A stretch of 38,938 bases of DNA from Escherichia phage vB_EcoM-813R9: the sequence record ON470620.1; one strand, written 5' to 3'. Within the stretch, counting starts at the first letter, position 1. The number at the start of each line of letters is the position of its first letter. Below, one piece after another: positions 1 to 21,650 of this stretch. The notes beneath the pieces are model-generated. The model was not told where the DNA came from. It ran no database searches and saw nothing but the letters and a program-made list of their open reading frames with translations. Made by a program: the position numbers and the translations under genes.

Positions 1-587
1 GTCACTTTGTCGCCCACCGCCGCCAGTTTCGGGTTATCTTTCAGCCACTCAGTGACCACTGCGGTGTCACCGAAGACGCCGTCGATACGCCCGTTTTGCA
101 GATCCAGTTTTGCGTTCTGGTAGCTGTCATACGGAACGGTAGTGATTTCCGGGTGCTTATCCATAATGAATTTCTGGTGTGTCGTCCCGTTCTGTACGCC
201 GACTTTTTTGCCTTTCAGCTGATCAACACTGGTGTATTTGCCTTGCTGACCCACAAACAGGGCAGAGTTGTCATAGTACGGGGTGGTAAACAGCACCTGC
301 TTTTCACGCTCCGGAGTGATATCCATGCCCGCCATCACGGCTTCTACGCGACGGAATTTCAGGCTTGGGATCAGGCTGTCAAACGCCTGGTTAGAGAAAG
401 TGCAGGTTGCATCAATCTCTTTACACAGCGCTTGTGCCAGGTCGACGTCAAAACCAACGATCTGGTTGTTTGCATCAATCGATTCAAACGGAGGATAGGA
501 GGCTTCGGTAGCAAAACGAATGGTTTCGGCAGCTGTGGCGGAAAGACTAAAACCTGCAATTAACGCGGCAATCAGAACTTTTTTCAT
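1..587 (-). CDS. artI: Arginine ABC transporter periplasmic binding protein ArtI; 3' end lies beyond the window start
   Basis: Reverse complement of 541-587 encodes MKKVLIAALIAGFSLS, the ArtI signal peptide; sits directly downstream of artP as in the E. coli art operon. Confidence 0.85.
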   Translation of the reverse strand, partial: MKKVLIAALIAGFSLSATAAETIRFATEASYPPFESIDANNQIVGFDVDLAQALCKEIDATCTFSNQAFDSLIPSLKFRRVEAVMAGMDITPEREKQVLFTTPYYDNSALFVGQQGKYTSVDQLKGKKVGVQNGTTHQKFIMDKHPEITTVPYDSYQNAKLDLQNGRIDGVFGDTAVVTEWLKDNPKLAAVGDKV

Positions 588-604
588 TGTTGTTATCCCG
601 AATC

Positions 605-1333
605 TTAGTGAGAGAGATAGTTTTTAAATGCTTCGGTTTGCGGCTCGGTAAAGCAGCTCGCGTCGCCTTGTTCTACGATATGACCATTTTCCATATACAC
701 CACTCGGCTGGCGGTTTTACGCGCCACTTCAACTTCGTGGGTGACGATCACCTGGGTAATATTCGTTTCTGCCAGCTCACGAATGATGCTGACGATTTGT
801 GCCGTAATTTCCGGGTCCAGTGCGGCGGTCGGTTCATCGAACAGCAGTACCTGCGGTTCCATCATCAACGCACGGGCAATAGCAACACGCTGCTGCTGAC
901 CACCAGAAAGATGCAGCGGGTAACGATCGCTATAAGGTTTGAGACGCAGACGTTCCAGCAGTTTTTCTGCACGGGCCAGCGCCTGATCTTTACTCAACCC
1001 CAGTACACGGCAGGGCGCTTCAATCAGGTTTTGCTGCACGGTCAGATGCGGCCACAGGTTGTATTGCTGAAACACCATGCCAACGTTACGACGCAAATCG
1101 CGAATCGCTTTGTCAGAGGGTGTTTTGGTGAAATCGAAATGGTTGCCTGCAATGTTGAGCGTACCGGAGCGCGGCATCTCAAGCAGATTGAGTACACGCA
1201 GCAGCGAGCTTTTACCCGCGCCGCTGGGGCCAAGTAACACCAGCGTTTCGCCCTGTGGGCAATCCAGCGTGATATCGAACAGCGCCTGATGCGCGCCGTA
1301 GAAGCAATTAATGCCGTTTAATTGAATACTCAT
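605..1333 (-). CDS. artP: Arginine ABC transporter ATP-binding protein ArtP
   Basis: ORF 605..1432 trimmed to the internal Met ([16 protein letters not shown]...); Walker [13 protein letters not shown] signature LSGGQQQR, Walker B LLFDEPT. Confidence 0.95.
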
Positions 1334-1550
1334 TGACACTCGTATACTGGCAGTCTGATAGCTATTGAGGTCGAAGATAGTACCTTTGACAGAATAATTA
1401 TGCAATATTTCTGCTTTAAAAGTTAAAAGCAAAGCGCATTATTCAATAAACATAGCACAAAATAACGGGGGCGGTGGTCGGCGAGCATAAATGTCGGCAT
1501 TCCTCACGAAATGCCGGACAATTTACGGGGTTTATTGGTTGATCAAGGCG

Positions 1551-2066
1551 TTAGCGATTCTCGATGGACTGACGGAGCGTACCCGCCGTGGCATGAACGC
1601 TACCGCCTAAGTAACGCACATCGTCGATGACCCAACACTGGCCTTCCTGAATCATTAACACTTCATCCTGCCAACCCTGGTCACCCTGTTTGAGATCCAC
1701 GCGCAATGGAATGTTACGGGCATCACGATTAGGGATAGTCGATGCACTGGCAACGTGGGCGCTATCTGGCAAGGTGGTTCGACTGGAGAATGGATCGTTG
1801 GTCAGTAGTTCCCGATGGTTATTATCCCGGGAGGCATCGCTAAGCAGTGTCGCCAGTTTGTCGCTCAGATAAGGGCGCAAGGCGGTGATGTCGTTGCTGC
1901 GGTGCAAAATGCGGTAGTCATAAAATTGCTGGGCCACGTTATCCGGGCCTCCTTCAACGCAAGGACCACTGCGTGTGCCGTTATCTTTATAAGCTGGAGT
2001 GACTGTGGTGCAGGCACTGAGGAGCAGTGCGCAGGGGATAAGCATTGTCAATTTGCTGTAGCGCAT
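1551..2066 (-). CDS. ybjP: Lipoprotein YbjP
   Basis: 171-aa ORF with lipoprotein signal peptide and lipobox (LLSAC); conserved position next to artP. Confidence 0.9.
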   Translation of the reverse strand: MRYSKLTMLIPCALLLSACTTVTPAYKDNGTRSGPCVEGGPDNVAQQFYDYRILHRSNDITALRPYLSDKLATLLSDASRDNNHRELLTNDPFSSRTTLPDSAHVASASTIPNRDARNIPLRVDLKQGDQGWQDEVLMIQEGQCWVIDDVRYLGGSVHATAGTLRQSIENR

Positions 2067-2191
2067 AATGATTTCCTTATAAGCGATCGCTCTGAAAGCG
2101 TTCTACGATAATAATGATATCCTTTCAATAATAGCGTATCAGTCTGATAATGCTTTTGAGATCGAAGGCTTAGCAAACAAGGAGATCGATC

Positions 2192-2515
2192 ATGCAATTT
2201 TCTACAACCCCAACTCTGGAAGGCCAGACCATCGTTGAATATTGCGGTGTGGTGACCGGCGAAGCGATTTTAGGTGCCAATATTTTCCGTGATTTCTTTG
2301 CCGGTATCCGCGATATCGTTGGCGGACGTTCCGGTGCGTATGAAAAAGAACTGCGTAAAGCACGGGAGATCGCCTTTGAGGAATTAGGCTCCCAGGCGCG
2401 GGCGCTGGGGGCCGATGCCGTCGTCGGTATTGATATCGACTACGAAACGGTCGGGCAAAACGGCAGTATGCTGATGGTTAGCGTCAGCGGTACGGCGGTG
2501 AAAACGCGTCGATGA
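2192..2515 (+). CDS. ybjQ: UPF0145-family protein YbjQ
   Basis: 107-aa [28 protein letters not shown]...; RBS ggag upstream; conserved synteny. Confidence 0.9.
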
Positions 2516-3342
2516 GAAGATTCTTCTGGCTGGTCGCTGCCGCTCTGTTATTGGCAGGGTGTGCAGGCGAAAAAGGCATTGTCGAGAAAGAGGGATATCA
2601 GCTTGATACCCGACGCCAGGCGCAGGCGGCGTATCCGCGCATTAAAGTGCTGGTGATCCACTACACCGCAGATGATTTTGATAGCTCGCTGGCGACACTG
2701 ACCGATAAGCAGGTCAGCTCGCATTATCTGGTCCCTGCGGTACCACCGCGATACAACGGTAAACCGCGCATCTGGCAACTGGTGCCGGAACAAGAACTGG
2801 CCTGGCATGCGGGGATTAGCGCCTGGCGCGGGGCAACGCGCCTTAACGACACCTCTATTGGCATTGAGCTGGAAAACCGTGGCTGGCAAAAATCGGCCGG
2901 AGTGAAATATTTTGCCCCGTTTGAACCGGCACAGATTCAGGCGCTTATTCCACTGGCGAAAGATATTATTGCCCGTTATCACATCAAGCCGGAAAACGTA
3001 GTGGCACATGCGGATATCGCACCGCAGCGCAAAGACGATCCGGGGCCATTATTTCCCTGGCAGCAACTGGCGCAGCAGGGGATTGGTGCCTGGCCGGATG
3101 CGCAGCGGGTTAACTTTTACCTTGCCGGGCGCGCGCCGCACACACCGGTAGATACCGCGTCATTGCTGGAGCTTTTGGCGCGCTACGGTTATGACGTTAA
3201 ACCTGATATGACACCGCGCGAGCAGCGGCGCGTGATTATGGCATTCCAGATGCATTTCCGCCCGACGTTATATAACGGCGAAGCGGATGCAGAAACTCAG
3301 GCGATTGCCGAAGCATTGCTGGAGAAATACGGGCAGGATTAG
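2512..3342 (+). CDS. amiD: N-acetylmuramoyl-L-alanine amidase AmiD (lipoprotein)
   Basis: 276-aa ORF with lipobox LLAGC; start overlaps ybjQ stop (ATGA); conserved synteny. Confidence 0.9.
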
Positions 3343-4352
3343 CGCGGCAGTTTTCCGTGGTCGCGTAGCCAGGCGGCAGTTTTCTCGATACCTTCATCCA
3401 GGGTGATGACCGGCTGATAACCTAACTCTTCCTGCGCACGCGTAATATCCAGCGTAAAGTCAAAATTCAACTTGGAGACGCCGTAGTGGGTCAGCGGCGG
3501 CTCTTTTGCTGACTTGCGGCCTAAACGCTCCATGCTGCGGGCGATCATATCCAGCATCGGGTAGGGGACGGAACGAATACGACAGTCAATATTCAACTCG
3601 TCGATCAGCTTCTGCACGATGCTGCGCAGTGTGCGATGCTCGCCGTTGGTGATGTTGTACACACGCCCGGAAGGTAGCTTATCGCAGGCTTCCTGGCTTG
3701 CCAGCCACATTGCGTGCACGGCATTTTCATAGTAGGTCATATCGACCAGCGCACTGCCGCCATGCGGTAACAGAATACTGCCGTAGTGGTGCATCATATG
3801 CGCCAGACGGGGAATAAAGACTTTATCGTGCGGTCCGAACAGACTTTGTGGGCGCAGAATAGTAAAGCGCGTTTGTGGATTCGCCTGCGAAAGCATATTG
3901 ATCACTTCTTCGCTGGCTGCTTTGCTGCGGGCAAACTCGTTGGCGAAGCGGTGAGGGCGAAAATCTTCTTTAATATCGCGATGGTGGTGATAATCGAAGT
4001 ACAGGGAGGGGGAAGAGATATGAATAAAGTTACGCACACCCCAGGCGACAGCCCATTCACCCAGGCGGCGAGTGGCGCGAACGTTAGCCAGATCGAAAGC
4101 CTGTTGTGTCCCCCAGGGTGAGGTAAAGCTGGAGCAGTGCCACAGCGTATCAATGCCCGCGAGCATCACTTTAGCTTGTGATGAAACCAGCTCGGTCAGA
4201 TCCGCCGGAACAAACTCTGCGCCCATTTTTTCCAGCAATTTGCCCATTGCCTCGTTGCGACCGGTCGCTCGCACGCTGATGCCTTTCTGGCATAAAAACT
4301 CTACCGCGTTTCGACCTAAGCCGCTGGTGGCGCCGGTAACCAGTACCTTCAT
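3339..4352 (-). CDS. ybjS: NAD-dependent epimerase/dehydratase family protein YbjS
   Basis: ORF 3339..4415 trimmed to Met22 ([15 protein letters not shown], Rossmann GxxGxxG motif), giving 337 aa. Confidence 0.85.
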
Positions 4353-4450
4353 ATCAATCCACTGTTGTTGAGAAAATAACGTGCGCATTCTTCCGTGATT
4401 TCCCCCATGATGCAATGGGAAACATGAAAGAATAACGCAGGTTTTGTCGA

Positions 4451-5203
4451 TTAATCTGTGCTTTGTTCTGCCAGTCTGGCGATTTGTTTTGCCATTCCGC
4501 GAAAAATAAACAGATGCGCGGGGATCATCAATAACCAGTAAAACAGCCCCGGCATACCGTGCGGATGCCAGAAAGCGCGGACATCGATAGTACGATAGTC
4601 GCCTTTATCTTCCAGGCTAAAACACAGTCGTCCCAGCCCCGGCGCTTTCATGCCAAATAACAACGTAAGTTGTTTTTCCGGTTCAACGACAATCACTTTC
4701 CAGCTATCCACCGCATCGCCAGTCTGTAAATATTCGCGCTCCGGGCGGCCTTTCGCCAGCTTATGACCGATCGCGCGGTCCATCAACGCCCGTGTCTGCC
4801 ACAAAATATTGCCAAAGAAATAACGCTCTTTACCGCCGATTTGGTTCACTACCTGCCATAAAGCAGCAAGGCTGGCGGACGTTTTAACGGTAAACCCCGC
4901 CTGTTTGGCAAAATAACCGTACTCCGGTCGCCAGCGGGCAAAGGCCTGAGCGTCGTAGCCCCAGTCGCTGGAGTTGACCAGTTTTTCCTCCTCTTTCAAC
5001 GTGCTACGTACCGCGTCATCGAAAGCGATCAGCCGTTGTGGGATGAGTGCACGTAGCGCGGTATCATCCGCCAGCAGATCGTGTTTCAGCCCCTGAATCA
5101 ACGCCCTGGCGGTGGTGGGCGGTACGGAAGTAATCACATTGAGAAACCACACCGAAATCCAGCGGGTGGGGAGGGGGATGGGGATCAACCAGCGGCGCTT
5201 ACC
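4451..5203 (-). CDS. ybjT: YbjT C-terminal portion; 5' part lost in the assembly gap
   Basis: Reading frame continues upstream of ORF 4451..5188 (..[15 protein letters not shown]..) until it hits the N-run. Confidence 0.75.
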
Positions 5204-5213
5204 NNNNNNNNNN
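5204..5213. other. Assembly gap of 10 N joining a chromosomal contig to a prophage contig
   Basis: Literal n characters in the sequence; an E. coli gene on one side and a phage tail-fibre gene on the other, both truncated. Confidence 0.95.
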
Positions 5214-6261
5214 GGTATGCGAGAAGACCAGCTACATCCTTTCCACTCAAATTAGTCAGCGTATTGTCCAGCGGTTGTTTACCTGCCAGCGCATTAAGCA
5301 TTGTCGTGGCAAAGTTCGGGTCATTCCCCAGCGCCGCAGCCAGTTCGTTCAGTGTATCCAGTGCAGCAGGTGCAGACCCCACCATTGCCGCAATTGCCGA
5401 TTTCACAAAAGCCGTGGTGGCAATCTGTGTATTGTTAACCGACTGTGCGGCAGTGGGGGCTGTTGGCGTTCCGGTGAGTGCCGGACTTAACAGCGGCGCT
5501 TTCAGTGCCAGCGCATTGTTAATGGTGGTACTGAATTTCGGGTCATTGTTTATGGCTGCGGCAATTTCTTTCAGCGTGTCCAGCGTGGCTGGCGCACCAT
5601 TAATAAGAGCCGTCAGTGCCACCTGAACAAACGCGGTGGTCGCAACCTGCGTGGTGTTATTCCCCGCCGCTGGCGTTGGCGCTTTGGGTGTCCCGGTAAA
5701 CATAGGACTTTCTTTGGGTGCATACTGTGAATGCGGGTCCGGTGCTGCAAGATGTTTTGCCATCTGATCATCCACGTACACCTTCAGCTCCAGTACCTTA
5801 TCATCCACATACTTGCGGGTTGCCAGCACGACGGCAGGGTCGATTTTCAGGGTGATATTGTCCGTGCTGCTGGTAATCAGCACCATGCGCACGGTCTGGG
5901 TGCGCCCGCTGCCTTCAGCCAGTTGCGGCTTATAGCTTTCCGGGCAGTTGCCCACGGCAATCAATGCCCCGGATTCATCAAACAGGCCCACTTCACGTAT
6001 CCACCAACCGCCCTCGTTTTCAGGGATCACCTGTTCAGCAATAATCTGGCTGCTGTTTTGCGGGTCGATATAGAGCATATTCAGCGCAGCCCGGCGTTTC
6101 TCATTTACCAGTGCAGTCTGCTTTGCGTCCGGCGTTGGTAATGTTCCGCCGCCATCGCCTACCGCCATATGGGTAATTTTTAACGGCACACCGAGCGCGG
6201 CGGCGCTGGCAAGTTTCGCCGCGCCAATATCCGTCAGCAGGGTATAAAATTTTGTGCTCAT
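5214..6261 (-). CDS. H: Tail fibre protein H, N-terminal ~350 aa; C-terminal receptor-binding part lost in the gap
   Basis: P2 gpH-like N-terminus MSTKFYTLLTDIGAAKLASAAALG..; start ATG overlaps the stop of gene I (ATGA). Confidence 0.85.
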
Positions 6262-6863
6262 GGATTCACTCTCATTGTGTCAATAACATGGACCGCCCCG
6301 CCTTCATGCGCGGTGCCGCCAGAAATAATTGTTTCGTTGATATACGGATAGATCGTGATTTCTTCACCAAGATAGCTGGCGGCCCCTACCCAGTGCGGGC
6401 CACTAGTTTGCAGATTGATGGACATGCCGATCATGTGACGGCTACATGGTTTGGCATCGCTTATCAGCCGCTCAAGTTCCAGATAGGTATCTTCAGTGAT
6501 GCCCTGGTCTTGCACGCCGATGTCCAGGCGAAACGTGCCCGGTGTTTCTCCAGTCTGCCACCACTCAATAATGCGTATCAGGAAGCCGAACGGCTCCACC
6601 ACCCGCCGCACGGCACTGGTGGTTCCTTTATGCTGATGAATATAAAAAGCATCCTTCACCACCTGGCGCTTGACGCTTTCTGTCCAGCCCTCGTCCCAGC
6701 GATCCACAGAGAACGCCCAGGCGAGATAAGGCAGGAAACTGACCGGACAGGTCGCCGGATCCCACAGGTCACGCAGCGGCACCTGCAAATCAGAAATCCC
6801 GCTGCACGCTTGCGCCAGTCGGCGCTCCAGTGGCGTTGAACCCGGTGGCAGCAGACTATTCAT
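6258..6863 (-). CDS. I: Baseplate assembly protein I
   Basis: 201-aa ORF with P2 gpI-like motifs (LLPPGSTPLE, LPYLAWAFSVDRWDE, GTFRLDIGV); RBS ggagga. Confidence 0.85.
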   Translation of the reverse strand: MNSLLPPGSTPLERRLAQACSGISDLQVPLRDLWDPATCPVSFLPYLAWAFSVDRWDEGWTESVKRQVVKDAFYIHQHKGTTSAVRRVVEPFGFLIRIIEWWQTGETPGTFRLDIGVQDQGITEDTYLELERLISDAKPCSRHMIGMSINLQTSGPHWVGAASYLGEEITIYPYINETIISGGTAHEGGAVHVIDTMRVNP

Positions 6864-7764
6864 CCGTTCCTCCGTTGGTTACGCTCCACTGCGTACATGA
6901 TGCCGCCTGTGTTTTGTTCAGGACCACATCCGCCAGAGGGGAAGCCAGCTCCACACGCTGCACACCCTCAACATGCAGGGCGGCAAAGATGGCGCTACGG
7001 CGAATATCCCGACCAAGACGCGTCTGACTGGCGATGTACTTCTGCAGGCTGGCTTTTGCCGCTGCCATTACCGGCTCTGCTTCCGGTCCCGGATAAAGAA
7101 AAATGGTGGCTTCCACTCGGTACGGGATGATTTCTGCGCTGCGAACCGTCAGACGGTCAGCCACCGGGCGGACGTTCTCACTGTTCAGGGCGTTCTCCAC
7201 CACATCCAGCAAGTCTTTTTCTGCAGTTCCGTCGCCTTCGCGGCTAAGGACAGTCAGCACCACCTCTGCAGGTGCCGGGCTGGTTGCACTGGCATCCGCC
7301 ACCCGACCGTCGGCGCTTCGGGCATGAAATTCATAAGCGGCAGTTGGCCCCGCAACCGAAAGCCCTTCAAAGGCTGCAGGCACACGCAGGCGTAACGCTT
7401 CATCGCTTTCCATCACAGCCGCAACGGGCGGCACAGCGTCATTATCAGCAGGCGTCACCGTCAGGCGTTTCACGTTGTAGTTGGCAGCGAGCTGGTCAAG
7501 ATCGCCGCCCATCGCGTAAGCCACCATCACCGCCTGCGCGGCTTCGTTAATGCGCTGGCGCAGAAGCAACTCACGGTAAGCGTTCTCCTGCAACAATTTG
7601 GTGACTGGTTCAGATTCCAGTTCCAGCGTGCGGATCACTGCTTCCTGCTCATCTTTCGGATGAAGCGCCACAAATTCTGCCTTGCGTTCGGCAAGCAGCG
7701 TCTCAAAGTCCGGCACATCCACAATCTGCGGTGCAGGCAACTGCGAAAGGTCAATCACTGCCAT
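6856..7764 (-). CDS. J: Baseplate assembly protein J
   Basis: ORF trimmed to MAVIDLSQLPAPQ (P2 gpJ-like N-terminus) with RBS aggag; overlaps W stop. Confidence 0.85.
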   Translation of the reverse strand: MAVIDLSQLPAPQIVDVPDFETLLAERKAEFVALHPKDEQEAVIRTLELESEPVTKLLQENAYRELLLRQRINEAAQAVMVAYAMGGDLDQLAANYNVKRLTVTPADNDAVPPVAAVMESDEALRLRVPAAFEGLSVAGPTAAYEFHARSADGRVADASATSPAPAEVVLTVLSREGDGTAEKDLLDVVENALNSENVRPVADRLTVRSAEIIPYRVEATIFLYPGPEAEPVMAAAKASLQKYIASQTRLGRDIRRSAIFAALHVEGVQRVELASPLADVVLNKTQAASCTQWSVTNGGTDE

Positions 7765-8110
7765 TCTCTGCTCCTGTTGATACGGAAAGGGACACAGGCA
7801 CACCGTTATTCCGCCGCCCGGTCAGCTCCACCACCATTGAACCGTCAAAATTGCTGTTAATAGTGATGGAATCCAGCGTCAGCCGTGGCTCCCAGCGACT
7901 CAGTGCCACATACACAGCCGACATGACCTGCAGGCGTAACGCCGGATTTTGTGGCTGGTCTATCAGTGCCGACAGCAGGGAACCATATTCCCGACGGGCA
8001 ATGCGGCTACCCTGCGGCGTCAGCAAAATGTCCCGCACCGACTGGCGCAGATGGTCAATATCAGTAATGGCTTTACCGCTGGTATTGTTCATCCCGCTAT
8101 AAAGCGTCAT
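7751..8110 (-). CDS. W: Baseplate wedge protein W (gp25-like)
   Basis: 119-aa ORF with P2 gpW-like motifs (GSRIARREYGSLL, IDQPQNPAL). Confidence 0.85.
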   Translation of the reverse strand: MTLYSGMNNTSGKAITDIDHLRQSVRDILLTPQGSRIARREYGSLLSALIDQPQNPALRLQVMSAVYVALSRWEPRLTLDSITINSNFDGSMVVELTGRRNNGVPVSLSVSTGAENGSD

Positions 8111-8685
8111 ACCGGGCCTCCGGTTGTGTCGCCGCCTTTCAGGACGCCAGTATGCTGATGTGCATCAACCACAATTCCGTTAGAACTCATTGCACCGCCG
8201 CCCTGGGTAACACCACCATTGATCACTACTTCGCTGTTAATGCGTGTGCGGTCAGCCTCCAGTACAAACTCACTGGTTTTCAGGGTGATGTTGTCGGCAG
8301 CTTCAATGACCATGGATTTGATTCCCCTGACATACCAGCGCCCGGTAGCGGGTTCGTATTCAAACCAGCCACCGTCAGGATGTTCTGTCACACAGGCGTC
8401 CACCGACGCCGACGGTGGTGCGAACTGATTCGAATATACAGCGGGCAGCGCAAAGGCGGTTTCCAGATTGCCGCCCAGACTCAGCAGCACCACCTGCTCA
8501 CCTTCCGATGGTCGCCACCATGTGCGGGCATTACCCGCGCGCAGCGTCAGCCAGTTAATCCAGTTGGTTTCAAGGTCGCCCGTTTTCACCCGACAAAGCC
8601 AGTGTTCCCGGTCCACTTCGGTGACTACACCAGTGCGGATCAGGTTGGTGATAAGGCGCATGATTTCGGTTAATTGTGCGTTCAT
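8107..8685 (-). CDS. V: Baseplate spike/hub protein V
   Basis: 192-aa ORF with P2 gpV-like motifs (WLTLRAGNARTWWRPSEGEQV, HQHTG...GGDTTGGP). Confidence 0.85.
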   Translation of the reverse strand: MNAQLTEIMRLITNLIRTGVVTEVDREHWLCRVKTGDLETNWINWLTLRAGNARTWWRPSEGEQVVLLSLGGNLETAFALPAVYSNQFAPPSASVDACVTEHPDGGWFEYEPATGRWYVRGIKSMVIEAADNITLKTSEFVLEADRTRINSEVVINGGVTQGGGAMSSNGIVVDAHQHTGVLKGGDTTGGPV

Positions 8686-8785: not shown

Positions 8786-10045
8786 ATGTTTAGATTATCT
8801 AGTGTCAAGATTGAAGGTTTTTGGGGAAGACTAAATGCATCATGTTCATTTAATGAAGATGTAAATATTATTATTGGTCGAAATGGGACCGGTAAAACAA
8901 CCTTTATGAATATTCTTCACTCAGTTCTGGCATTAGAACTCGAATCACTAAATGAGAATAGTTTTGATAATGTAACAATAAAAATAAAAGAAGGAAGCAA
9001 AACTAAAACAATAAAAGTTGTGAGTAAATTTGACATAACTAAAGCTTTGCCTACGTTTGAATATACAATTTCTAGAAAGAAATATATTATCAGATCCTTT
9101 GAAGATCGTAGACTACCTATATATATGAGGAGAAAATATCAGGAAGACGTTGAAAAACTTAAGTTAGAGTTAGATAAATTAGTTGCTTTATCTTCTCTAT
9201 CAGTTTACCGACTTAGAAGCGGTGAAGATTTTGAAATCAGAGACAAATATGGCTCAAAATTAATCAACCCTGTTGATTACCGATTAGAACAATTATTGCA
9301 GAACCTAACAAAATATCAACTTTATTTATCACAAAGAGCTCGTGATGTTTCTGCAATATTACAGAAAGAGGTTCTTGCTTCTATTCTTTATAGTAAAGAA
9401 GATGGTATCGATGACACATTTAACTTTTCTTTTGATAAAGAAAAAGAACGTAGAAATTTAATAGCTGCATATTCTCAGCTTGGAGCTTTTGATAGTGATG
9501 TCAGAAAGAAGATTAACTTTCACGTTGAATCTATTGCCAAAACATTTGAAGAATTACGACTTGCAGAAAAAAATAACAGAAATATTTTAAATGTAGATTA
9601 CAGATCATTTGAGGCATTACGAAAGACGCAAAGAATTATAAAGATGTCTTTAAAATCCGAGGAGAAAATAAAAAACATATTTCTTCCTATAAATCTATTT
9701 TTAGAAACATTACATGAGTTCATAACCGATAAAAAATTTAATTTTATCTCCGGTGAGCTAGTAATAGAAAACGAGCATGGGCCGATTAGCCATAGTAATT
9801 TATCGTCTGGTGAAAAACAGCTATTAATTCTTTTTATTGAAACTTTGCTACAGCAAAACAAACCTTTCATCTATCTTACTGATGAACCAGAATTATCGCT
9901 ACATATTGCATGGCAACGAAAAATAATACCTGCAATCAAACAACTTAATCCTAATGCGCAAATTATCGCCGCTACGCATTCACCAGAAGTGGCTTCTAAA
10001 TATCGAAATGCAATCTTTGATATGGAGAAATTGGTTCATGGATGA
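8786..10045 (+). CDS. ariA: ABC/SMC-like ATPase (AAA15-type); candidate AriA of a PARIS-like defence module
   Basis: 419-aa ORF in AT-rich DNA; Walker A GRNGTGKTT, ABC signature LSSGEKQ, Walker B FIYLTDEPELSLH, H-loop ATHSPE; RBS aaagga. Confidence 0.6.
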   Translation: MFRLSSVKIEGFWGRLNASCSFNEDVNIIIGRNGTGKTTFMNILHSVLALELESLNENSFDNVTIKIKEGSKTKTIKVVSKFDITKALPTFEYTISRKKYIIRSFEDRRLPIYMRRKYQEDVEKLKLELDKLVALSSLSVYRLRSGEDFEIRDKYGSKLINPVDYRLEQLLQNLTKYQLYLSQRARDVSAILQKEVLASILYSKEDGIDDTFNFSFDKEKERRNLIAAYSQLGAFDSDVRKKINFHVESIAKTFEELRLAEKNNRNILNVDYRSFEALRKTQRIIKMSLKSEEKIKNIFLPINLFLETLHEFITDKKFNFISGELVIENEHGPISHSNLSSGEKQLLILFIETLLQQNKPFIYLTDEPELSLHIAWQRKIIPAIKQLNPNAQIIAATHSPEVASKYRNAIFDMEKLVHG

Positions 10046-10889
10046 TTTCCATTATTCTGCCGAAGCAGAAAATGTAATGAATTTATTTTACCAAGCTGAA
10101 GCCATGGTTTATGTTGAAGGCCCAGATGATATTTGCTTTTGGGAAATCATCTTTAATAAAGCTAGTTCATTAAAGGTTGAAATCAAAGATGTTGGCGGCT
10201 GTGAAGAATTAAAAAAATATATTGATAGAGTTACTGATGAAGATCTTCAAATTATAATTGCATGTGATGCAGACTTCACTACATTTGAAAATGAGGAAAA
10301 CGCTGATAGTCGCATTGTAAAAACTTATGGGCACTCCATCGAAAACACGTTTATTGACAAAACAGGCATATATAAGGCAATAAAAACTCTAGGAAAATTA
10401 CCTCAAAAGATAATGAACGATGTCAACGTCGATTCTTGGACAGAAGACTTTTATACCAAAATGGAACCCCTAATAAAACTTGATATATACAATCATATTT
10501 ATAGAAAAGGCATTTCAGTTATTGGTGACAGTGCAGATCGTTTCATGAAATCTAGAAAATCAAATGAAATTTGCGAGCAAAAAATCACGAGTTACAAAAA
10601 CACCATCATTGAAAAATTAGGTGTGGAACCAGATAACATCGATTCATCTTTCAAATCAAAATCGATAGAATACAGAAAGTGGCTTAGAGGTCATTTTCTT
10701 TTTTCTGCAGTACATAGGTACATTAGCACAACTGCAGAAAAAAATGGAAAAAAAGTATCCTTATCATATGAATCATTATATTCCAATTTAATGAATACAT
10801 TTGAATCCAATTTTACCAATACTCATATTGAGTTTAATCATTACCACGAAAAAATTAAAGCCATAAATATGCCACACGAAATGAAATAA
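10038..10889 (+). CDS. ariB: Toprim/DUF4435-like protein; candidate AriB effector of a PARIS-like module
   Basis: Start ATG overlaps the ariA stop (ATGGATGA); N-terminal VYVEGPDD with Glu27 and a downstream IIACDAD (DxD) motif as in Toprim/OLD-family nucleases; AT-rich. Confidence 0.55.
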   Translation: MDDFHYSAEAENVMNLFYQAEAMVYVEGPDDICFWEIIFNKASSLKVEIKDVGGCEELKKYIDRVTDEDLQIIIACDADFTTFENEENADSRIVKTYGHSIENTFIDKTGIYKAIKTLGKLPQKIMNDVNVDSWTEDFYTKMEPLIKLDIYNHIYRKGISVIGDSADRFMKSRKSNEICEQKITSYKNTIIEKLGVEPDNIDSSFKSKSIEYRKWLRGHFLFSAVHRYISTTAEKNGKKVSLSYESLYSNLMNTFESNFTNTHIEFNHYHEKIKAINMPHEMK

Positions 10890-10914: not shown

Positions 10915-11361
10915 TTATGTAGATAACCATTCAAATAGGGTATCCTTGATTTGATAATATTCTTTATCGTGGATACCCAATAGCTTACGCTCTGCGTAAC
11001 GGACCTCAGGTCCTTTGCGACTGACGCGATCACGCAGGCCGTAGTGATGAACGCGGGCAATGCGCTGCACCTTGCCTTCAAACTGCACGCTGGCAGAATC
11101 GGCGCTGGCGGCAGTTTTCAGGTATTTTGTGGTGCGCAGCTTCGCAAACATCTGACGTTTAATGCGGCCTTTTTTACTGCGTGCTGTTACCCGTCGCGGT
11201 TCATAGCTGCTGCCGTCAGGGTTGCGCTGCATCCTGATATTCTGCTGCTGTGTCCGGCGAAGTTCCTGCGCCAGTTGGCGCATCATACGGCTTCTTGCGG
11301 CTGGCTCCAGATTCGCCAGCAAGGCACTCAGCCAGTCGTCCACCTTCTGCAATTCAGCCAC
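10915..11361 (-). CDS. S: Tail completion protein S
   Basis: 148-aa ORF at the P2 gene S position after R; apparent GTG start; last ~25 codons lie in AT-rich DNA. Confidence 0.7.
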   Translation of the reverse strand: MAELQKVDDWLSALLANLEPAARSRMMRQLAQELRRTQQQNIRMQRNPDGSSYEPRRVTARSKKGRIKRQMFAKLRTTKYLKTAASADSASVQFEGKVQRIARVHHYGLRDRVSRKGPEVRYAERKLLGIHDKEYYQIKDTLFEWLST

Positions 11362-11785
11362 GTTTCACCGTCCACATTTCTTCAGGTTCATCGGGTTCCG
11401 CTACAGCTTCAACGCTGGACACTGTGCCGTCAGTGCTGACCAGCACACGTTCCGTCAGTTGCAGGTTAAGGCTGATATCACAGACATCGTTGCGCAGAAT
11501 ATCCACCTCAAAGGTGAATAACTTTTCCCGTAAAGCGGGATTATTGATGGCATCGGGCTGGTTATCACGCAGCCACAGCAAAACCGGGGCCATCAACAGA
11601 TTCTGGTCACCACTGAAATCCTCTATCACCACGTTCAGGGTGTAGCGGTACTCCCATGACATGGAGCTGGCCCCCGTGGCAACCAGCGAACCGTTATCCA
11701 CAAACAGATGCAGTTTGTCCGGGTTATTACGGACATAAGGCACTGCTTTATTAAGGGCGTGGCGCAGGGATTGTGGTTTGTTCAC
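11354..11785 (-). CDS. R: Tail completion protein R
   Basis: ORF 11354..11806 trimmed to a GTG start preceded by aggag; P2 gene R position. Confidence 0.7.
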   Translation of the reverse strand: MNKPQSLRHALNKAVPYVRNNPDKLHLFVDNGSLVATGASSMSWEYRYTLNVVIEDFSGDQNLLMAPVLLWLRDNQPDAINNPALREKLFTFEVDILRNDVCDISLNLQLTERVLVSTDGTVSSVEAVAEPDEPEEMWTVKRG

Positions 11786-12038
11786 TGTTTCGCTCCTGAC
11801 ACGCAATAATCATGTCCACTTTGTCTGCACAGACCGCCCAGGCGGCCTCCGTTTCATCCAGCAATGCGTTCAGATCACCGTTAGTGCGCGGCGCTGTCTG
11901 ATCCAGCCGACACGGCGTCACTCGCGGACAACCACTGACGGTAAGCTGCACCTCCGGTGAGTGCCGGACGTTCCCGCAGCCGGATAATGTCAACAGGCAA
12001 AGGAGTATCAGCCCAGCGGCGTAAATCCTCGTTCTCAC
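11751..12038 (-). CDS. lysC: Outer-membrane spanin lipoprotein (LysC/Rz1-like), embedded out of frame in lysB
   Basis: Signal peptide plus lipobox LTLSGC; embedded in and extending past lysB as in Rz/Rz1 pairs; start codon non-ATG and uncertain. Confidence 0.5.
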   Translation of the reverse strand: MRTRIYAAGLILLCLLTLSGCGNVRHSPEVQLTVSGCPRVTPCRLDQTAPRTNGDLNALLDETEAAWAVCADKVDMIIACQERNSEQTTIPAPRP

Positions 12039-12309
12039 GTTTCAGTTCTTCGATCCGGCGTTGTCGTTGTCTCAGCTGTGCGCTGGTCTGTTCTGCTTCG
12101 GCATAGAGCCGCGCCTGCTCCCGGTTATTAGTTTCAGTCAGAATGGACAGGCTGATAAGCTGGCTGTTGCTCTTTGCCAGTGCCTGACTTTTGCTCTGCA
12201 GCTCGTCTGCCTGCGTGCTGATGGTCTGGCTGGCATCAGCCAGCCGCCACGTCTGCCAGCCCAGCGCCGCCAGTAATAACGCCAGCACAACCAGCAGCAA
12301 CCGGTTCAT
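11881..12309 (-). CDS. lysB: Inner-membrane spanin (LysB/Rz-like)
   Basis: 142-aa ORF with N-terminal TM helix and coiled-coil, Arg/Glu-rich periplasmic domain. Confidence 0.75.
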   Translation of the reverse strand: MNRLLLVVLALLLAALGWQTWRLADASQTISTQADELQSKSQALAKSNSQLISLSILTETNNREQARLYAEAEQTSAQLRQRQRRIEELKRENEDLRRWADTPLPVDIIRLRERPALTGGAAYRQWLSASDAVSAGSDSAAH

Positions 12310-12683
12310 GCTGCTACCTGTTGCGCCATCTGATTACGGGTGATCCAGAAGGCAATAACGGTCAGTAGATAAAAGACCAGGGTAATAGCCCACCCCGTCC
12401 AGGCGAGACTTACGACAATCAGCAATCGCATCACCCAGCTGATAAATACGTTTTCTTTTCGGGTAATGGTCTTCAGCAAAGATGCCCTCAACTCCTGCCA
12501 GAGCGAGCCATTCTTAATTAACGCAGCCAGTGCTACCGGAATTACCGCCCATGTCAGTAAACAGGCTACCCAAACGCCGGACGCTGCCAGTACCGGAAAA
12601 ATCCCCTGCGGATACACCATTGCTGCAATTAACAGCGCCATCCATAACATCAGAAACAGCCCGCTGATTAATTTCTTTTTCAT
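12306..12683 (-). CDS. lysA: Lysis regulatory membrane protein LysA
   Basis: Multi-TM small protein MKKKLISGLFLMLWMALLIAAM.. between the endolysin and lysB. Confidence 0.7.
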   Translation of the reverse strand: MKKKLISGLFLMLWMALLIAAMVYPQGIFPVLAASGVWVACLLTWAVIPVALAALIKNGSLWQELRASLLKTITRKENVFISWVMRLLIVVSLAWTGWAITLVFYLLTVIAFWITRNQMAQQVAA

Positions 12684-12684
12684 T

Positions 12685-13197
12685 TCAGTTTGCTCCCTGT
12701 AAACACCAGGCCATCTCCCGCGCACGGCGGTTATCCAGCCCCTGATTAAACACACCTTTCACATAAACCCAGCGCGGTAACTGTCGGCACGCATCCGCCC
12801 AGCGCCGCTGATTGAGCAATTTCACCAGTGTGGAACTGCAGGCATTGCTAGTTCCCACGTTGAAGGCAAACGACACCGTAGCGTCATACACCTTCTGTGG
12901 TGGCTGTTGCTTCACACACCTTTCCAGTGCCCGCTCCACACGCAGCACGTTGGAGATCAGCCCTTCTGCTGCCTGTCGTTCCGTGATTGTTTTGCCGGGA
13001 ATGACGCCCGATGTATTACCAATGCCGTCAGTCCAGACACCCGCGCTGCACTGATACGGCTGCAGACGACAGCCTTCGTAATCGGCAATCAGTTTCAGCC
13101 CTTCCACGGACGTATGAAGCTGCTGAAAGCCCGGCAGCGTGGCAGCAATAGCCAGCACGGCCCCGACAAGGCAGCGTTTAACGACTGATGGATTCAT
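12685..13197 (-). CDS. K: Endolysin (P2 gpK-like lysozyme)
   Basis: 170-aa ORF with N-terminal hydrophobic segment and lysozyme-like core, in the lysis cassette. Confidence 0.8.
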   Translation of the reverse strand: MNPSVVKRCLVGAVLAIAATLPGFQQLHTSVEGLKLIADYEGCRLQPYQCSAGVWTDGIGNTSGVIPGKTITERQAAEGLISNVLRVERALERCVKQQPPQKVYDATVSFAFNVGTSNACSSTLVKLLNQRRWADACRQLPRWVYVKGVFNQGLDNRRAREMAWCLQGAN

Positions 13198-13393
13198 AGT
13201 CCTCCCGCGAGATCTGCCCGTCGCGCAGAAGCTGGTAGGCTTTGTGTTTGTAGTACCAGTTGATAGCCAGCATCAGCACACCAATCATCAGGCCGCCCAG
13301 CGTTGAGATATCCTTGATGGACAAATCGCCCAGCCAGGCCAGCACGACGGCGATGCAATACGTGATAAAGGCGCTGATTCGCTCAAGCGTCAT
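13178..13393 (-). CDS. Y: Holin (P2 gpY-like)
   Basis: 71-aa two-TM protein with charged C-terminus immediately upstream of the endolysin. Confidence 0.7.
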   Translation of the reverse strand: MTLERISAFITYCIAVVLAWLGDLSIKDISTLGGLMIGVLMLAINWYYKHKAYQLLRDGQISREDYESISR

Positions 13394-13396
13394 AAT

Positions 13397-13600
13397 TCAG
13401 TCCCATAGCTGGACGGTCTGCACGGTGGTGGTTGCCGGAATGTCCGGCAGCTCCACCTGCAGCCCGTGAGGTAAAAAGGGGCCGTATTCGGCAAGCCCCG
13501 GATTTGCCTTCAGTACCTGCTCCGTGACACCCTGCGTGCGCCCGTAATGACGCCAGCAAAGCGCGTCCACCGTGTCATACTGATGCGCACGCACTTTCAT
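13397..13600 (-). CDS. X: Tail protein X
   Basis: 67-aa ORF at the P2 gene X position and size. Confidence 0.75.
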   Translation of the reverse strand: MKVRAHQYDTVDALCWRHYGRTQGVTEQVLKANPGLAEYGPFLPHGLQVELPDIPATTTVQTVQLWD

Positions 13601-14064
13601 CAGATAAGCTCCACTGTGCAGTGCGGCGCATCCTGCACCCGGCTGATGGCCCAGCGGGCGTCACGCCACAAATCACCGCTTGCTTCCGCCAGTTCCTCGC
13701 CTCGCTTCACACCGGACGCCGTGGCGTCATAGTCCTGATAACGCTCGTTGAGCATGGCGCGTGCCCAGCAGTAAACCGCGTTGAAATAGTGCTGAATGCG
13801 CTCACTTTTGCCGTCCAACTGTTCCGCCGGAACCTCAGCCAGCGACGCATACCCCAGCATCTGCTGACGTCTGCGAAACTCATACAGCTCTGCGTTGACC
13901 TCCGAAATTGCCGACAGCGCAACCTGCTTTAAACGCGGCTGCGTCACCGTGCCGTCAGTGCGCATCACACTGCGAAACTCCGACAGGTCCACATCAGGCC
14001 AGAACGGCGTATTTCTGATGATTTCCGCCTGTTCCGGTGCCTGTTCTGGCGCAACAAACTTCAT
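13600..14064 (-). CDS. L: Head completion/stabilisation protein L
   Basis: ORF trimmed to MKFVAPEQ with RBS aggaga; P2 gpL position after M. Confidence 0.7.
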   Translation of the reverse strand: MKFVAPEQAPEQAEIIRNTPFWPDVDLSEFRSVMRTDGTVTQPRLKQVALSAISEVNAELYEFRRRQQMLGYASLAEVPAEQLDGKSERIQHYFNAVYCWARAMLNERYQDYDATASGVKRGEELAEASGDLWRDARWAISRVQDAPHCTVELI

Positions 14065-14159
14065 GCTGCTTTCTCCTGAAATAAAGGGCGGTGGACGGGG
14101 TTTTGATGTGGCAGAGCCTTTCGCCACCCCGTGCCGCCCGTGCGCGGGGGCACGTTCTG

Positions 14160-14810
14160 TCAGCGGCTGTCATTGCGCAGTCTGCGCTCCAGCTGCTGTT
14201 TGTCTTTTTTCACGCCACAGCGGGGATCGAGCTGTAACGCATGGTTGAGATGATTAAGGGCGGAAGCCGGATTGCTTTCACTCAGGACTGCGCCAATCGC
14301 TTTATGCAGACGCGCCCGTGACTGGTCCGGCATATCCAGATCGTCTGTCAGTTCCAGCGTCTGCAGCAACAGATCAGCATCAAAGCCGATGGCGGCAAGC
14401 ATTGCGCTCTGCGCTGCGTCTGCCATTTCCTCTGCCAGCACGGTCTGCACGTTGCGGTTACCCAGCGGCATCACCCAGCCATGACGCAGGGCATGACGCC
14501 CGATCTCCAGCGCCCCGGCATAATCTCCGGCATCAATGCGCCACAGCATCACGTACATCAGCACGTCATCCTGCTGTGCGCCTCCGGCAGCCAGGACACC
14601 CTCCGCCCAGGCGGCGTACTTCGGCAGCAGCTCCACTTTGATTTCCGCTTTTTTGACCGTGGACTGAACGCCCTTGAGACGGCGGCGGTCTTCCGCCAGT
14701 TGCAGTAGCATCAGGTCATAGCCCGACGCGTGGCGAACACTGCCGCCCTCGCGGGCGGCCTGTTCAGCCTGAACGCGCAGGCGATGCTGCCGTGCGGGAC
14801 TCAGGCTCAT
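14160..14810 (-). CDS. M: Terminase endonuclease (small) subunit M
   Basis: 216-aa ORF at the P2 gene M position between N and L. Confidence 0.8.
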   Translation of the reverse strand: MSLSPARQHRLRVQAEQAAREGGSVRHASGYDLMLLQLAEDRRRLKGVQSTVKKAEIKVELLPKYAAWAEGVLAAGGAQQDDVLMYVMLWRIDAGDYAGALEIGRHALRHGWVMPLGNRNVQTVLAEEMADAAQSAMLAAIGFDADLLLQTLELTDDLDMPDQSRARLHKAIGAVLSESNPASALNHLNHALQLDPRCGVKKDKQQLERRLRNDSR

Positions 14811-14813
14811 GGT

Positions 14814-15869
14814 TTATGCTCCGGCTTCTGCGGCGGTGCTGAAGTCGCCAATCTGGATGTTTTCCACCAGTGCTGCGCAGCGGTAGTCCTCAACCACATA
14901 GGCTTCGTTAACGGATTCAAAGTTTTCAATCCGGTCACGTTTCGGGTTGTCGATAACTGAACGGCGGCGGGTGTCTTCCTGCCAGTAGATGGACAGGTTA
15001 TCCAGACGGGTGATCAGCAGCGCATTCGGCGGGAAGAACGGCGCACGCACGGCCTGCAGGCCACCCATGCGTTTCTGGCTGATGATCATATCGGCAGCCA
15101 GTTTTTCACTGTTTTCCTGCTCTTTGTTGACCAGCGGGAAATACTTATCAGACAACAGTTCACGACCGCAAATCACCACCAGATCGTCATCGTCCTGGTA
15201 GACCACGTCGATAAGCTCATTAACGGCATCCATCACCACGGCGTCCAGGTTGGCATATTCGCCACCTTTACCGACTTTCACCGCGCCCGGTGTGGTTTCA
15301 CCGCCCGTGGTGGTGCTGCCCATGACGTGATCCGGTGCATCCTCACGGATTTTCTGCAGCCAGCCTTTATTCACATCCTGCAGCAGCGGGTTTTCGCTAC
15401 GGTTGGAGGTTTTCGCACGCTTCACGCCGTTAAAGCCGATCATGATGCGGTCCAGTGCCTGACGTTTCACGATGGCGTCACGGATACGCACCTGAAAATC
15501 CTGAAACTTCGCCCACAGGTCCAGCTTCGCGTAGGTCAGCACCGTGTCAAAGTTGGTCTGCTCGCATTTATATTCCACATCGACCATCAGCGTCGGATCG
15601 ACAGGTTCACGCTCTTTCGCGGTGGTATCAGTGGTTCCGGCAATGGTGCTGCCAACTCCCAACCCCAGCAGCTGACCGGACTGCTCAGTCACTGGCGTGA
15701 CGTTAATCAGCGTCAGGAAAGCGGCGGACTGCTGGATCTGGTCTTCCAATGTCTGCTGCACGGACGGCTCTACGGTGAACTTGCTGGACAGTTCTTCAAC
15801 TGCCACACCGTTCAGACGCGCCAGTTGCTGCAGGTAAGCGTTAAAAGCAAAGCGGGTATTCTTCTTCAT
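14814..15869 (-). CDS. N: Major capsid protein N
   Basis: 351-aa ORF strongly P2 gpN-like (TRFAFNAYLQQ.., KYFPLVNKEQENSE.., NLSIYWQED). Confidence 0.9.
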   Translation of the reverse strand: MKKNTRFAFNAYLQQLARLNGVAVEELSSKFTVEPSVQQTLEDQIQQSAAFLTLINVTPVTEQSGQLLGLGVGSTIAGTTDTTAKEREPVDPTLMVDVEYKCEQTNFDTVLTYAKLDLWAKFQDFQVRIRDAIVKRQALDRIMIGFNGVKRAKTSNRSENPLLQDVNKGWLQKIREDAPDHVMGSTTTGGETTPGAVKVGKGGEYANLDAVVMDAVNELIDVVYQDDDDLVVICGRELLSDKYFPLVNKEQENSEKLAADMIISQKRMGGLQAVRAPFFPPNALLITRLDNLSIYWQEDTRRRSVIDNPKRDRIENFESVNEAYVVEDYRCAALVENIQIGDFSTAAEAGA

Positions 15870-15885
15870 CAGGTTTTGTGCTCCA

Positions 15886-16719
15886 TCAGCAATTGGTCAG
15901 AGTGTCAGCGGGGGCGTTACCGCCTGTTGCACGCTGGCGGTAGTCCTGGCGGCTGTCTTCTTGGCTCAGCTTGTCCACCAGTTCGTTAAAGGCGGTCTGC
16001 TGTGCCTGCAGGGCTGTCTCCAGCTCAGACAGGCGCTCTTCCTGCTCAGACAGGGATTTTTCGGTGCGCGCACTCAGGTTCTGCTGCTCAGTGGCGACCA
16101 GTTCCACGGCCTTATGCACATCAGAGAACCGGGCGTCATCGGACTGCTCTTTTTTGGTGAACAGCGCCGTGACACGGGCAAACAGGGACGGCTTGTCCTC
16201 CTGGATTTCTTCCAGTTCGATCACCGTTTCCTCTGCGGCTGTAAAGAGATTGGCGGGATTCTGCTTGCGGTTTGCCAGCGGGTTATGGGCTGCACTGGCG
16301 CTGAATGTCAGCATTTCAGTGCCCAGACTGGCAGGGTCATCAGTGGCTGCCAGGCCGACCAGGTAGGCTTTGCCCGTATCAGCAAACTTCGGGCTGACTT
16401 CCATAGAGGTGAATAATTTCTGGCCTTTTTTCACCAGTTCCACCAGGGACTCCGTTGGCTCAACGTCGGCATACAGCGCCATCTTGCCTGCCAGCGGACC
16501 TTCCGTGATTTCTTCAGCAAACAGCGCCGTCACCTTACCGTAGCGGTTAAAGGTGCTGTCCGGCAGATAAGACTTGATGTGCTCAAGGTTAATCAGCGCG
16601 GTATACACCGCCGGGTTGTAGCTGGCTGCCATCTGTTCCAGCCATTCACGCTGGATTTCGCGTCCGTCGGTGGTGGCACCTTCCACCCCGATGCGAAAAC
16701 GCTTTGCTTTCACTGTCAT
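15886..16719 (-). CDS. O: Capsid scaffolding protein O
   Basis: 277-aa ORF P2 gpO-like (FRIGVEGATTDGR, YLVGLAATDDPASLGTE, C-terminal ..ATGG..TNC). Confidence 0.9.
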   Translation of the reverse strand: MTVKAKRFRIGVEGATTDGREIQREWLEQMAASYNPAVYTALINLEHIKSYLPDSTFNRYGKVTALFAEEITEGPLAGKMALYADVEPTESLVELVKKGQKLFTSMEVSPKFADTGKAYLVGLAATDDPASLGTEMLTFSASAAHNPLANRKQNPANLFTAAEETVIELEEIQEDKPSLFARVTALFTKKEQSDDARFSDVHKAVELVATEQQNLSARTEKSLSEQEERLSELETALQAQQTAFNELVDKLSQEDSRQDYRQRATGGNAPADTLTNC

Positions 16720-16797
16720 GAGCCGTGCTCCGTTAGAAAAAACTTACTGGAGCCTTATGGTTGCGGTGATGGGGGCAGTGAAACAATGCGCGGTATT

Positions 16798-16815
16798 TGT
16801 ACCGACAACCACACA
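16798..16815. promoter_or_regulatory. Candidate Ogr-type late-activator site (TGT-N12-ACA) in the divergent O/P promoter region
   Basis: tgtaccgacaaccacaca in the 142-bp intergenic region between divergently transcribed O and P. Confidence 0.45.
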
Positions 16816-16861
16816 AACCGCAGGCGGGGAAAGCCTTCATTCAAGGTTGTAGGTTTGTGCC

Positions 16862-18628: not shown

Positions 18629-19662
18629 TGGGAAAGAGTAAGAAGAACCGCGCTGCGGCGACGAAACAGATCCAGCTTAAAAGTCAAACTACAGCCGAAG
18701 CATTCAGCTTCGGCGATCCCGTTCCTGTTCTGGACCGCCGAGAACTGCTGGATTATGTGGAATGCGTACAGATGGACCGTTGGTATGAGCCGCCCGTCAG
18801 CTTTGACGGACTGGCGCGCACCTTCCGCGCTGCCGTGCATCACAGTTCCCCGATTGCAGTAAAGTGCAACATTCTGACCAGTACCTATATCCCTCACCCG
18901 CTGCTCAGCCAGCAGGCTTTTTCACGTTTTGTGCAGGACTACCTGGTATTTGGTAACGCCTACCTGGAGAAACGCACGAACCGCTTCGGTGAAGTTATCG
19001 CCCTTGAGCCTGCCCTGGCAAAATATACCCGACGCGGGTTAGACCTGGATACCTACTGGTTTGTGCAATACGGTATGACAACCCAGCCATATCAGTTCAC
19101 GAAAGGCAGCATTTTTCATCTGATGGAACCAGATATTAATCAGGAGATCTACGGCCTGCCCGGCTATCTTTCTGCCATCCCATCCGCTTTGCTCAACGAG
19201 TCCGCCACGCTGTTCCGCCGCAAATATTACATTAACGGTAGTCATGCAGGCTTCATCATGTACATGACCGATGCCGCGCAGAACCAGGAGGATGTGAACA
19301 ACCTCCGCAATGCGATGAAAAGCGCCAAAGGGCCGGGCAACTTCCGCAACTTGTTTATGTACTCACCCAACGGAAAGAAAGACGGGATTCAGATCATCCC
19401 GCTGTCAGAGGTGGCGGCAAAAGATGAGTTTCTTAACATCAAGAACGTGAGCCGGGATGACATGATGGCAGCGCACCGTGTACCGCCGCAGATGATGGGG
19501 ATTATGCCTAGTAATGTTGGCGGGTTTGGGGATGTTGAAAAGGCTAGTAAGGTTTTTGTCAGGAATGAGTTAATTCCGCTACAACACAGAATATCTGAAA
19601 TTAACTCATGGATTGGACTTAATGAAGAACTGGTTAAATTTACCTCATATGAATTAGATTAG
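18628..19662 (+). CDS. Q: Portal protein Q
   Basis: P2 gpQ-like (LDRRELLDYVEC, NESATLFRRKYY, GPGNFRNLF); ORF-track start 18625 is TTG, ATG at 18628; last ~40 codons AT-rich. Confidence 0.9.
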   Translation: MGKSKKNRAAATKQIQLKSQTTAEAFSFGDPVPVLDRRELLDYVECVQMDRWYEPPVSFDGLARTFRAAVHHSSPIAVKCNILTSTYIPHPLLSQQAFSRFVQDYLVFGNAYLEKRTNRFGEVIALEPALAKYTRRGLDLDTYWFVQYGMTTQPYQFTKGSIFHLMEPDINQEIYGLPGYLSAIPSALLNESATLFRRKYYINGSHAGFIMYMTDAAQNQEDVNNLRNAMKSAKGPGNFRNLFMYSPNGKKDGIQIIPLSEVAAKDEFLNIKNVSRDDMMAAHRVPPQMMGIMPSNVGGFGDVEKASKVFVRNELIPLQHRISEINSWIGLNEELVKFTSYELD

Positions 19663-19713
19663 GCATATAGAAATGCACCTAACATCGAAAGTGAGATTAG
19701 GTGCAAATAATAA

Positions 19714-20865: not shown

Positions 20866-20950
20866 CACACTCCCCTTTTTTTGAAAGGGTATTGTATTGA
20901 ACCTTGTTAAGATTTCTCAGATAAGTATCACACTATCTCAAGTTGCGCGC

Positions 20951-20970
20951 GCTCGTATCCCCGCCACGCC
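20951..20970. other. Candidate cos (cohesive end) core
   Basis: Reverse complement reads ggcgtggcggggatacgagc, resembling the GC-rich 19-nt cohesive ends of P2/186-type phages (recalled, not aligned). Confidence 0.35.
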
Positions 20971-21019
20971 TGCCCGCTTTATGTAGTGGTTTTCATGCAC
21001 CTGCATGATCTACGCAAAA

Positions 21020-21408: not shown

Positions 21409-21418
21409 AAAAGTCACC

Positions 21419-21607: not shown

Positions 21608-21650
21608 CTTTCCTCCTATGACACCACACGCAATACTGTACGCATAACCA

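Follow-up and report, generated by a model that had tools for sequence, protein, structure and literature searches.

The join between truncated ybjT and a truncated P2-type tail-fibre gene in draft record JAMBZV010000159.1 is very probably a scaffolding artefact with one contig attached in flipped orientation

We report here that the window, the whole stretch of 38,938 nucleotides that was analysed, contains a single run of N (10 N, positions 5204-5213), and that the join made at this run is very probably a scaffolding artefact of the NCBI draft assembly GCA_023473005.1, in which two ordinary contig ends were brought together and the left contig was attached flipped. Comparison with finished genomes makes it almost certain that the real chromosome has the gene order of EC11, an identical clone. 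The original prediction had noticed that the N run interrupts both ybjT and gene H of a P2-like prophage, and this is confirmed by our analysis. Positions 4451-6261 comprise exactly the two truncated genes and the gap, the latter being the 10-N scaffold gap of JAMBZV010000159.1. The ybjT part (4451-5203, minus strand) holds the C-terminal 250 codons plus the stop out of a full length of 476 codons, and the contig ends at 5203. The H part (5214-6261, minus strand) is that of a P2-type tail-fibre gene and holds the constant N-terminal 349 of 505 codons, ending in LLAY. The chimeric open reading frames at 5185-6261 and 4451-5188 had no exact record on protein look-up.

The two flanks could be placed base by base in finished genomes. 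Window positions 1-5203 are the exact reverse complement of EC11 (NZ_CP060938.1) 3722251-3727453, and the window from 5214 on is an exact forward match to EC11 from 3751416 over at least 22,000 bases; the right flank goes on for a further 24,939 bases at 100% identity to EC11. It had been suggested, from the K-12 gene order as remembered, that the flanks are mutually inverted, and these exact EC11 matches of opposite sense bear the suggestion out, the flanks running in opposite senses relative to both EC11 and K-12; none of these features is a chance effect. With coordinates transferred from the EC11 annotation, the left flank carries artI (1-587, minus strand, cut by the window start), artP (605-1333, minus), ybjP (1551-2066, minus), ybjQ (2192-2515, plus), amiD (2512-3342, plus) and ybjS (3339-4352, minus), followed by the ybjT part, which is 100% identical to K-12, as is a 2.2-kb test stretch at 3000-5203. 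The chromosomal part of the right flank (30706-38938) holds rcdA, ybjJ, ybjI, ybjH, mdfA, ybjG, deoR, dacC, gstB and yliI, the last of them cut. In EC11 the order is ltaE, ybjT, ybjS ... artI ... ybjL, prophage, rcdA ... yliI, and the prophage itself reads ogr, D, U, T, E, FII, FI, invertase, invertible segment, H, I, J ... CI, int. EC11 is collinear with K-12 except for the 35-kb prophage between ybjL and rcdA. The complete genomes XJW9B277, DETEC-E223 and DETEC-S560 match as well as EC11 does, are likewise collinear with K-12 and have the whole prophage. Relative to the EC11 order, the window has the appearance of an inversion of the 29,165 bp that separate the two break points. The limits of the window itself are not arbitrary: the sequence GTCACTTTGTCGCC at 1-14, in artI, recurs from the last window base, 38938, through the next 13 EC11 bases into yliI, so that in the frame of the scaffold the window is one period between two copies of this 14-nt direct repeat. 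The pair of GTCACTTTGTCGCC copies at the window edges looks like a spurious att pair of a prophage caller; chance 14-mer repeats are common in a 45-kb frame.

The source record gives an indication of what was joined to what. Over 15,203 bases, N run included, an extract of JAMBZV010000159.1 and the window are reverse complements of each other; the record is 175,436 bp long and its base 23,760 corresponds to window base 1. Beyond the window, the left contig remains identical to EC11 up to potH, that is, for 10,753 bases from the break with 0 mismatches, and from there 18,209 more bases lead to the start of the record, which, when the lengths are added up, gives about 28,962 bases for the left part of the scaffold. 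Assuming that collinearity continues, record base 1 would fall at EC11 3751212, 203 nt short of the H crossover. In all likelihood, then, the left contig would be the genuine left neighbour of the right contig, attached backwards by the wrong end, and it would supply the 9.5 kb of tail genes, along with ybjL, the invertase and the greater part of the invertible segment. It is from these lengths that we infer the content of the first 18.2 kb of JAMBZV010000159.1 and, with it, the reading of the left contig as a flipped true neighbour. The tail genes beyond H and the second att site, which were said to be missing, are indeed absent from the window (they take up 9,550 bp in EC11), and to judge from the lengths the tail genes most probably sit upstream on the same record. 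By the same arithmetic the record would start inside the flipped interval, hence it would carry no reciprocal junction. C-terminal H partials of the size expected at the far side of the crossover (84-93 aa) are on record for 8 of the 10 lengths, none of them on a 175-kb record, a point against the reading as a flipped neighbour. As regards the earlier description of the join as possibly arbitrary, the scaffold join itself stands, but the contig on the left was apparently the actual neighbour of the right one, inserted backwards.

The end in ybjT is a recurrent product of short-read sequencing and assembly near a G/C run and is unconnected with the prophage. At 5164-5183 on the plus strand lies the G-run GGGTGGGGAGGGGGATGGGG, with four G tracts and PIPLPT on the other strand, which we propose as the cause of the recurrent contig break; it is the sole G-quadruplex-type motif in 76 kb and is located 20 nt from the contig end. 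Exact look-up of C-terminal YbjT fragments annotated as partial, counted as contigs per length, returned 156, 28, 58, 20, 16, 21, 11, 9, 5 and 43 contigs for the successive lengths of 245 to 254 aa, and 18 to 311 contigs for lengths of 214-225 aa. The control lengths of 150, 175, 200, 201, 290, 300, 301 and 330 aa gave 1, 3, 10, 7, 0, 3, 0 and 2 contigs, respectively. The 250-aa partial of the window itself is also on record in many other assemblies. The same ybjT base, give or take 1-2 nt, is where contigs begin in unrelated NCBI assemblies and in two Logan runs, and two other scaffolds are gapped at this base (100 N and 53 N) and resume beyond the gap with the N-terminal part of ybjT. The shared end position thus stands far above its neighbours, and other scaffolds bridge from it to normal ybjT. 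Since the same end recurs in unrelated assemblies, its position must have been set by sequencing and assembly and not by recombination. The known short-read coverage and error problems at G-quadruplex-type motifs are a close parallel, in that here too a hot spot seen in hundreds of assemblies is narrowly confined to the surroundings of a 20-nt run that contains four G tracts; the link between motif and break is here a statistical one, of position and recurrence among assemblies. Over the gene as a whole, hundreds of YbjT entries annotated as partial end within about 40 codons of the G-run, and almost none elsewhere in ybjT.

The other contig end lies on a crossover site for a DNA invertase. 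The right contig opens at GGTATG with the outer half-site GGTATGCGAGAA (5214-5225, plus strand), directly past the 2-bp core AA of the 26-bp crossover site in H, which in EC11 reads TTCGCCCAAACC AA GGTATGCGAGAA. Its partner site, TTTTCATAAACG TT CAATTGGGAGAA, is 1.53 kb away and adjoins a gene, outside the window, for a 188-aa invertase with Resolvase and HTH_7 domains (PF00239 and PF02796, from sister loci). With a matrix made from their own four half-sites, the two crossover sites are by far the two top scorers in 76 kb, and they are inverted relative to each other with matching AA/TT cores, as is the rule for Din-family invertible segments. Recombinases of the Hin/Gin/Cin family act on 26-bp sites, which they cut with a 2-bp stagger at the centre (PMC3798978; PMC1904230). 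Proteins with the identical 349-aa N-terminus of H have at least six different C-termini after LGLGE/LQLGE. The EC11 form of H, with 505 aa, is found on 203 contigs, and the form predicted for the flipped EC11 segment, with 494 aa and the junction AYLQLGEAAKRDVGTGNNQLP, on 56 contigs, including the finished genome EC26. Both orientations of the segment thus give in-frame fibre proteins and both are present in public genomes, again as in the Din family, and the occurrence of the 494-aa form alongside the 505-aa form indicates that the segment flips in this phage lineage. A contig end exactly on the crossover core would be the product expected of a culture of mixed orientation. The four 100%-identical complete genomes have the segment in the same orientation, so the mixed culture is a conjecture drawn from the position of the contig end.

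In its general design the element resembles the Hin/Gin/Cin/Pin segments, such as the G segment of Mu, the C segment of P1 and the P segment of e14, with which it shares a small serine recombinase gene beside the segment, two inverted 26-bp sites made of imperfect 12-bp half-sites with matching AA/TT cores, and a constant fibre N-terminus fused in frame to alternative C-termini, both orientations of which occur in nature. It differs from them in that its host is a P2-like prophage, that one chaperone gene is reduced in EC11, and that the invertase and the segment lie beyond the window. To our knowledge, P2 itself has no invertase. The identical 349-residue part of H is joined to many receptor-binding C-termini in records named E. 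coli, Citrobacter, Salmonella, Shigella and E. albertii, and all of these C-termini switch right after the crossover-encoded LGLGE/LQLGE. The EC11 segment (18425-19528 of the extracted locus, outside the window) has two tail-fibre chaperone genes, of which one has shrunk to a 77-aa open reading frame, so that the flipped form with the 494-aa H may be without a full-length cognate chaperone.

How the left contig came to be flipped can be pictured from the properties of the two ends. In ybjT, the 20-nt G-run (a C-run on the other strand) 20 nt away would have acted as a weak spot for short-read assembly. In H, the Hin/Gin/Cin-type invertase would flip the 1.5-kb segment, so that both orientations were probably present and the assembler could not read through the crossover. 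Read pairs from cells with the flipped segment would tie H to the segment in reverse and would vote for the wrong contig orientation, and pairs from the other orientation would have to bridge the unassembled 203 nt, which may have favoured the wrong orientation further; the scaffolder would then have inserted a minimal 10-N spacer. Against this picture, a read-pair scaffolder normally needs real pairs between the ends that it joins. The identity of the record, the two break positions and their causes and the collinearity of the sister genomes are direct results, and the scaffolder's choice of orientation is what we infer. Other misoriented contigs of short-read assemblies likewise come with a minimal N spacer, known causes of breakage at both ends and collinear finished relatives. 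What sets this one apart from an ordinary misoriented contig is a probable biological trigger, the flipping tail-fibre segment. We found no extended similarity between the two contig ends in either orientation; they have one 11-mer, CAGCGGCGCTT, in common, its copies lying 300 nt apart, which we judge to be due to chance.

The structure of the window is also exactly what would be left by a real inversion of 29.2 kb (EC11 3722251-3751415), in which the prophage invertase would have recombined the H crossover with a secondary, or quasi, site in ybjT, either throughout the sequenced population or in some of its cells. We regard such an event as very unlikely. It would account for an H breakpoint exactly at the centre of the crossover, and the ybjT flank GGTAAGCG (the reverse complement of the left end) does share 7 of its 8 bases, in a fixed register, with the H half-site GGTATGCG, with p = 3.5e-4, or p = 2.8e-3 if either half may pair with any of the four phage half-sites. 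Seen from the join, this is a reverse-complement match of 7/8 between the last 8 bases of the left contig and the first 8 of the right (p of about 3e-4 to 3e-3), and we treat it as a coincidence. Rare use of secondary crossover sites has been reported for Cin in an interview remark by Arber (PMC4270481), which is the only mention of quasi-cix sites in the portion of the literature available to us. Recombination of that kind would likewise fuse the tail-fibre crossover to unrelated DNA and would superficially look like the window; the difference is that a recognisable site and a compatible core are missing here and that the ybjT end has a technical explanation. With the matrix from the phage's four half-sites, the full site in ybjT scores merely among the top 6.6% of random positions; it is without the conserved outer TTCTC, its other half is poor, and similarity to both half-sites is not recognisable. 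Moreover, the 2-bp cores, GC in ybjT and AA in H, differ at both positions, and in Hin-type recombination even one altered core position blocks religation once a single exchange has taken place (PMC1904230). Had the inversion been fixed, the assembly would have run across the junction uninterrupted, yet no contiguous sequence covers it, and the breakpoint in ybjT is not specific to this genome. The join of ybjT to H occurs in 0 of 5,426 complete E. coli genomes; it was also sought without success among GTDB representative genomes and JGI metagenome contigs, and IMG/VR gave no match for the stretch of ybjT at which the contig ends. We rejected the quasi-site inversion on the matrix score, the unlike cores and the G-run 20 nt away, and above all on the ybjT end itself, which many assemblies unrelated to the prophage share exactly or with a shift of 1-2 nt; this last point is decisive. 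Just as improbable is a version in which the scaffolder had genuine pair support and a sizeable subpopulation of the culture carried a 29-kb inversion, made by the tail-fibre invertase by way of a very poor ybjT site that happens to coincide with an assembly weak spot. The best non-cognate match to the matrix in 76 kb is TTCGCGCCACTC GC CGCCTGGGTGAA in ybjS (window ~4056-4081; EC11 3723373), 1.1 kb from the ybjT break; the contig is continuous through it, so it has no part here.

It is also conceivable, though in our judgement quite unlikely, that the join is arbitrary altogether, two unrelated contigs having been strung together in the order of the file, or by a script that uses no reference, with a 10-N spacer of fixed length, so that neither their adjacency nor their orientation would be informative. 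The spacer is compatible with simple concatenation, and a record that is number 159 and yet 175 kb long implies that the records of the assembly are not sorted by length. However, the left part, of about 28,962 bases, would in that case happen to end 203 nt from the EC11 start of the right part, and with at least 159 records the chance that true neighbours end up side by side is no more than a few percent; the N run, moreover, lies within a single public record. We give almost no credence to a real rearrangement by another route, whether homologous recombination between two P2-like prophages or recombination between IS copies hidden in the gap. The former had been raised in the original prediction, which left the choice between a scaffold join and a real inversion, possibly between prophage copies, and of these the scaffold join is supported and the inversion is not, three sister genomes being collinear and of a single copy. 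DETEC-S560 does have two places that match H-I-J, but EC11, XJW9B277 and DETEC-E223 carry one copy only. Both contig ends are native to the last base, without any foreign bases such as an IS or a second prophage would leave, and the lack of extended similarity between them in either orientation speaks against either type of recombination. That an IS should have inserted precisely at the centre of the crossover and, in addition, precisely at the assembly hot spot in ybjT is implausible. Recombination through an IS or between prophages was therefore rejected, on the lack of foreign bases at the ends and the single prophage copy in the three sisters. A flipped contig in a scaffold remains our preferred explanation.

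The prophage next to the join is of a familiar type. According to EC11 and Pfam tables it has the gene set and order of P2, with P2-family capsid, GPO scaffold, terminase, portal, gpX, L, R, S, V, W, J, I, H, FI, FII, E, T, U, D, ogr, CI and integrase, which places it among the P2-like (Peduoviridae-type) prophages. The tail-fibre assembly gene, the invertase, FI, FII, E, T, U, D, ogr and the attachment junction on the ybjL side are absent from the window. It had been stated that the completeness of the prophage cannot be judged; this is true of the window alone, but 100%-identical complete genomes carry the full 35-kb prophage. Next to H, the baseplate genes I, J, W and V occupy 6258-8685 (minus strand), and the rest of the prophage (10915-27769) comprises S, R, the lysis genes, X, L, M, N, O, P, Q, a cargo gene, the replication gene A, dam, a cII-like gene and CI. 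An AriA/AriB-like (PARIS-type) defence pair is carried as cargo at 8786-10889 on the plus strand, between baseplate gene V and tail gene S (PADLOC, E 6e-40 for AriA and 2e-24 for AriB). Between CI and the integrase lies a gene for a DUF4041 protein (27790-29466, plus strand) with a PD-Lambda-1 match (E 3e-120), which is likely defence cargo, and the same is likely of a TIGR02391-family protein near the portal gene (19714-20865, minus strand) with weak PD-Lambda-3_B/HEPN-like matches. The phage integrase is encoded at 29549-30601 (plus strand). A candidate att core, ATGGGTTTTTTGTT, is found at 30676-30689 (plus strand) and is repeated at the ybjL side of the EC11 prophage. A 19-nt unit (AACCTAACTTATTGTTTT plus 1 nt) is tandemly duplicated at 30620-30657, between the integrase gene and rcdA, with ATGGGTTTTTTGTT just beyond.

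The real elements behind the join are of kinds already known, namely a P2-like prophage and a Din-type invertible tail-fibre segment. The truncated ybjT, the truncated tail-fibre gene, the seemingly incomplete prophage and the apparent inversion are not to be read as biology of the strain, and in identical finished genomes ybjT is intact and the 35-kb P2-like prophage between ybjL and rcdA is complete. The G-rich 20-mer in ybjT is a reproducible point of contig breakage in short-read E. coli assemblies. Flipping tail-fibre segments can mislead scaffolders as to orientation, and a contig that stops precisely at the core of an invertase crossover offers an inexpensive marker of tail-fibre segments that are actively flipping.
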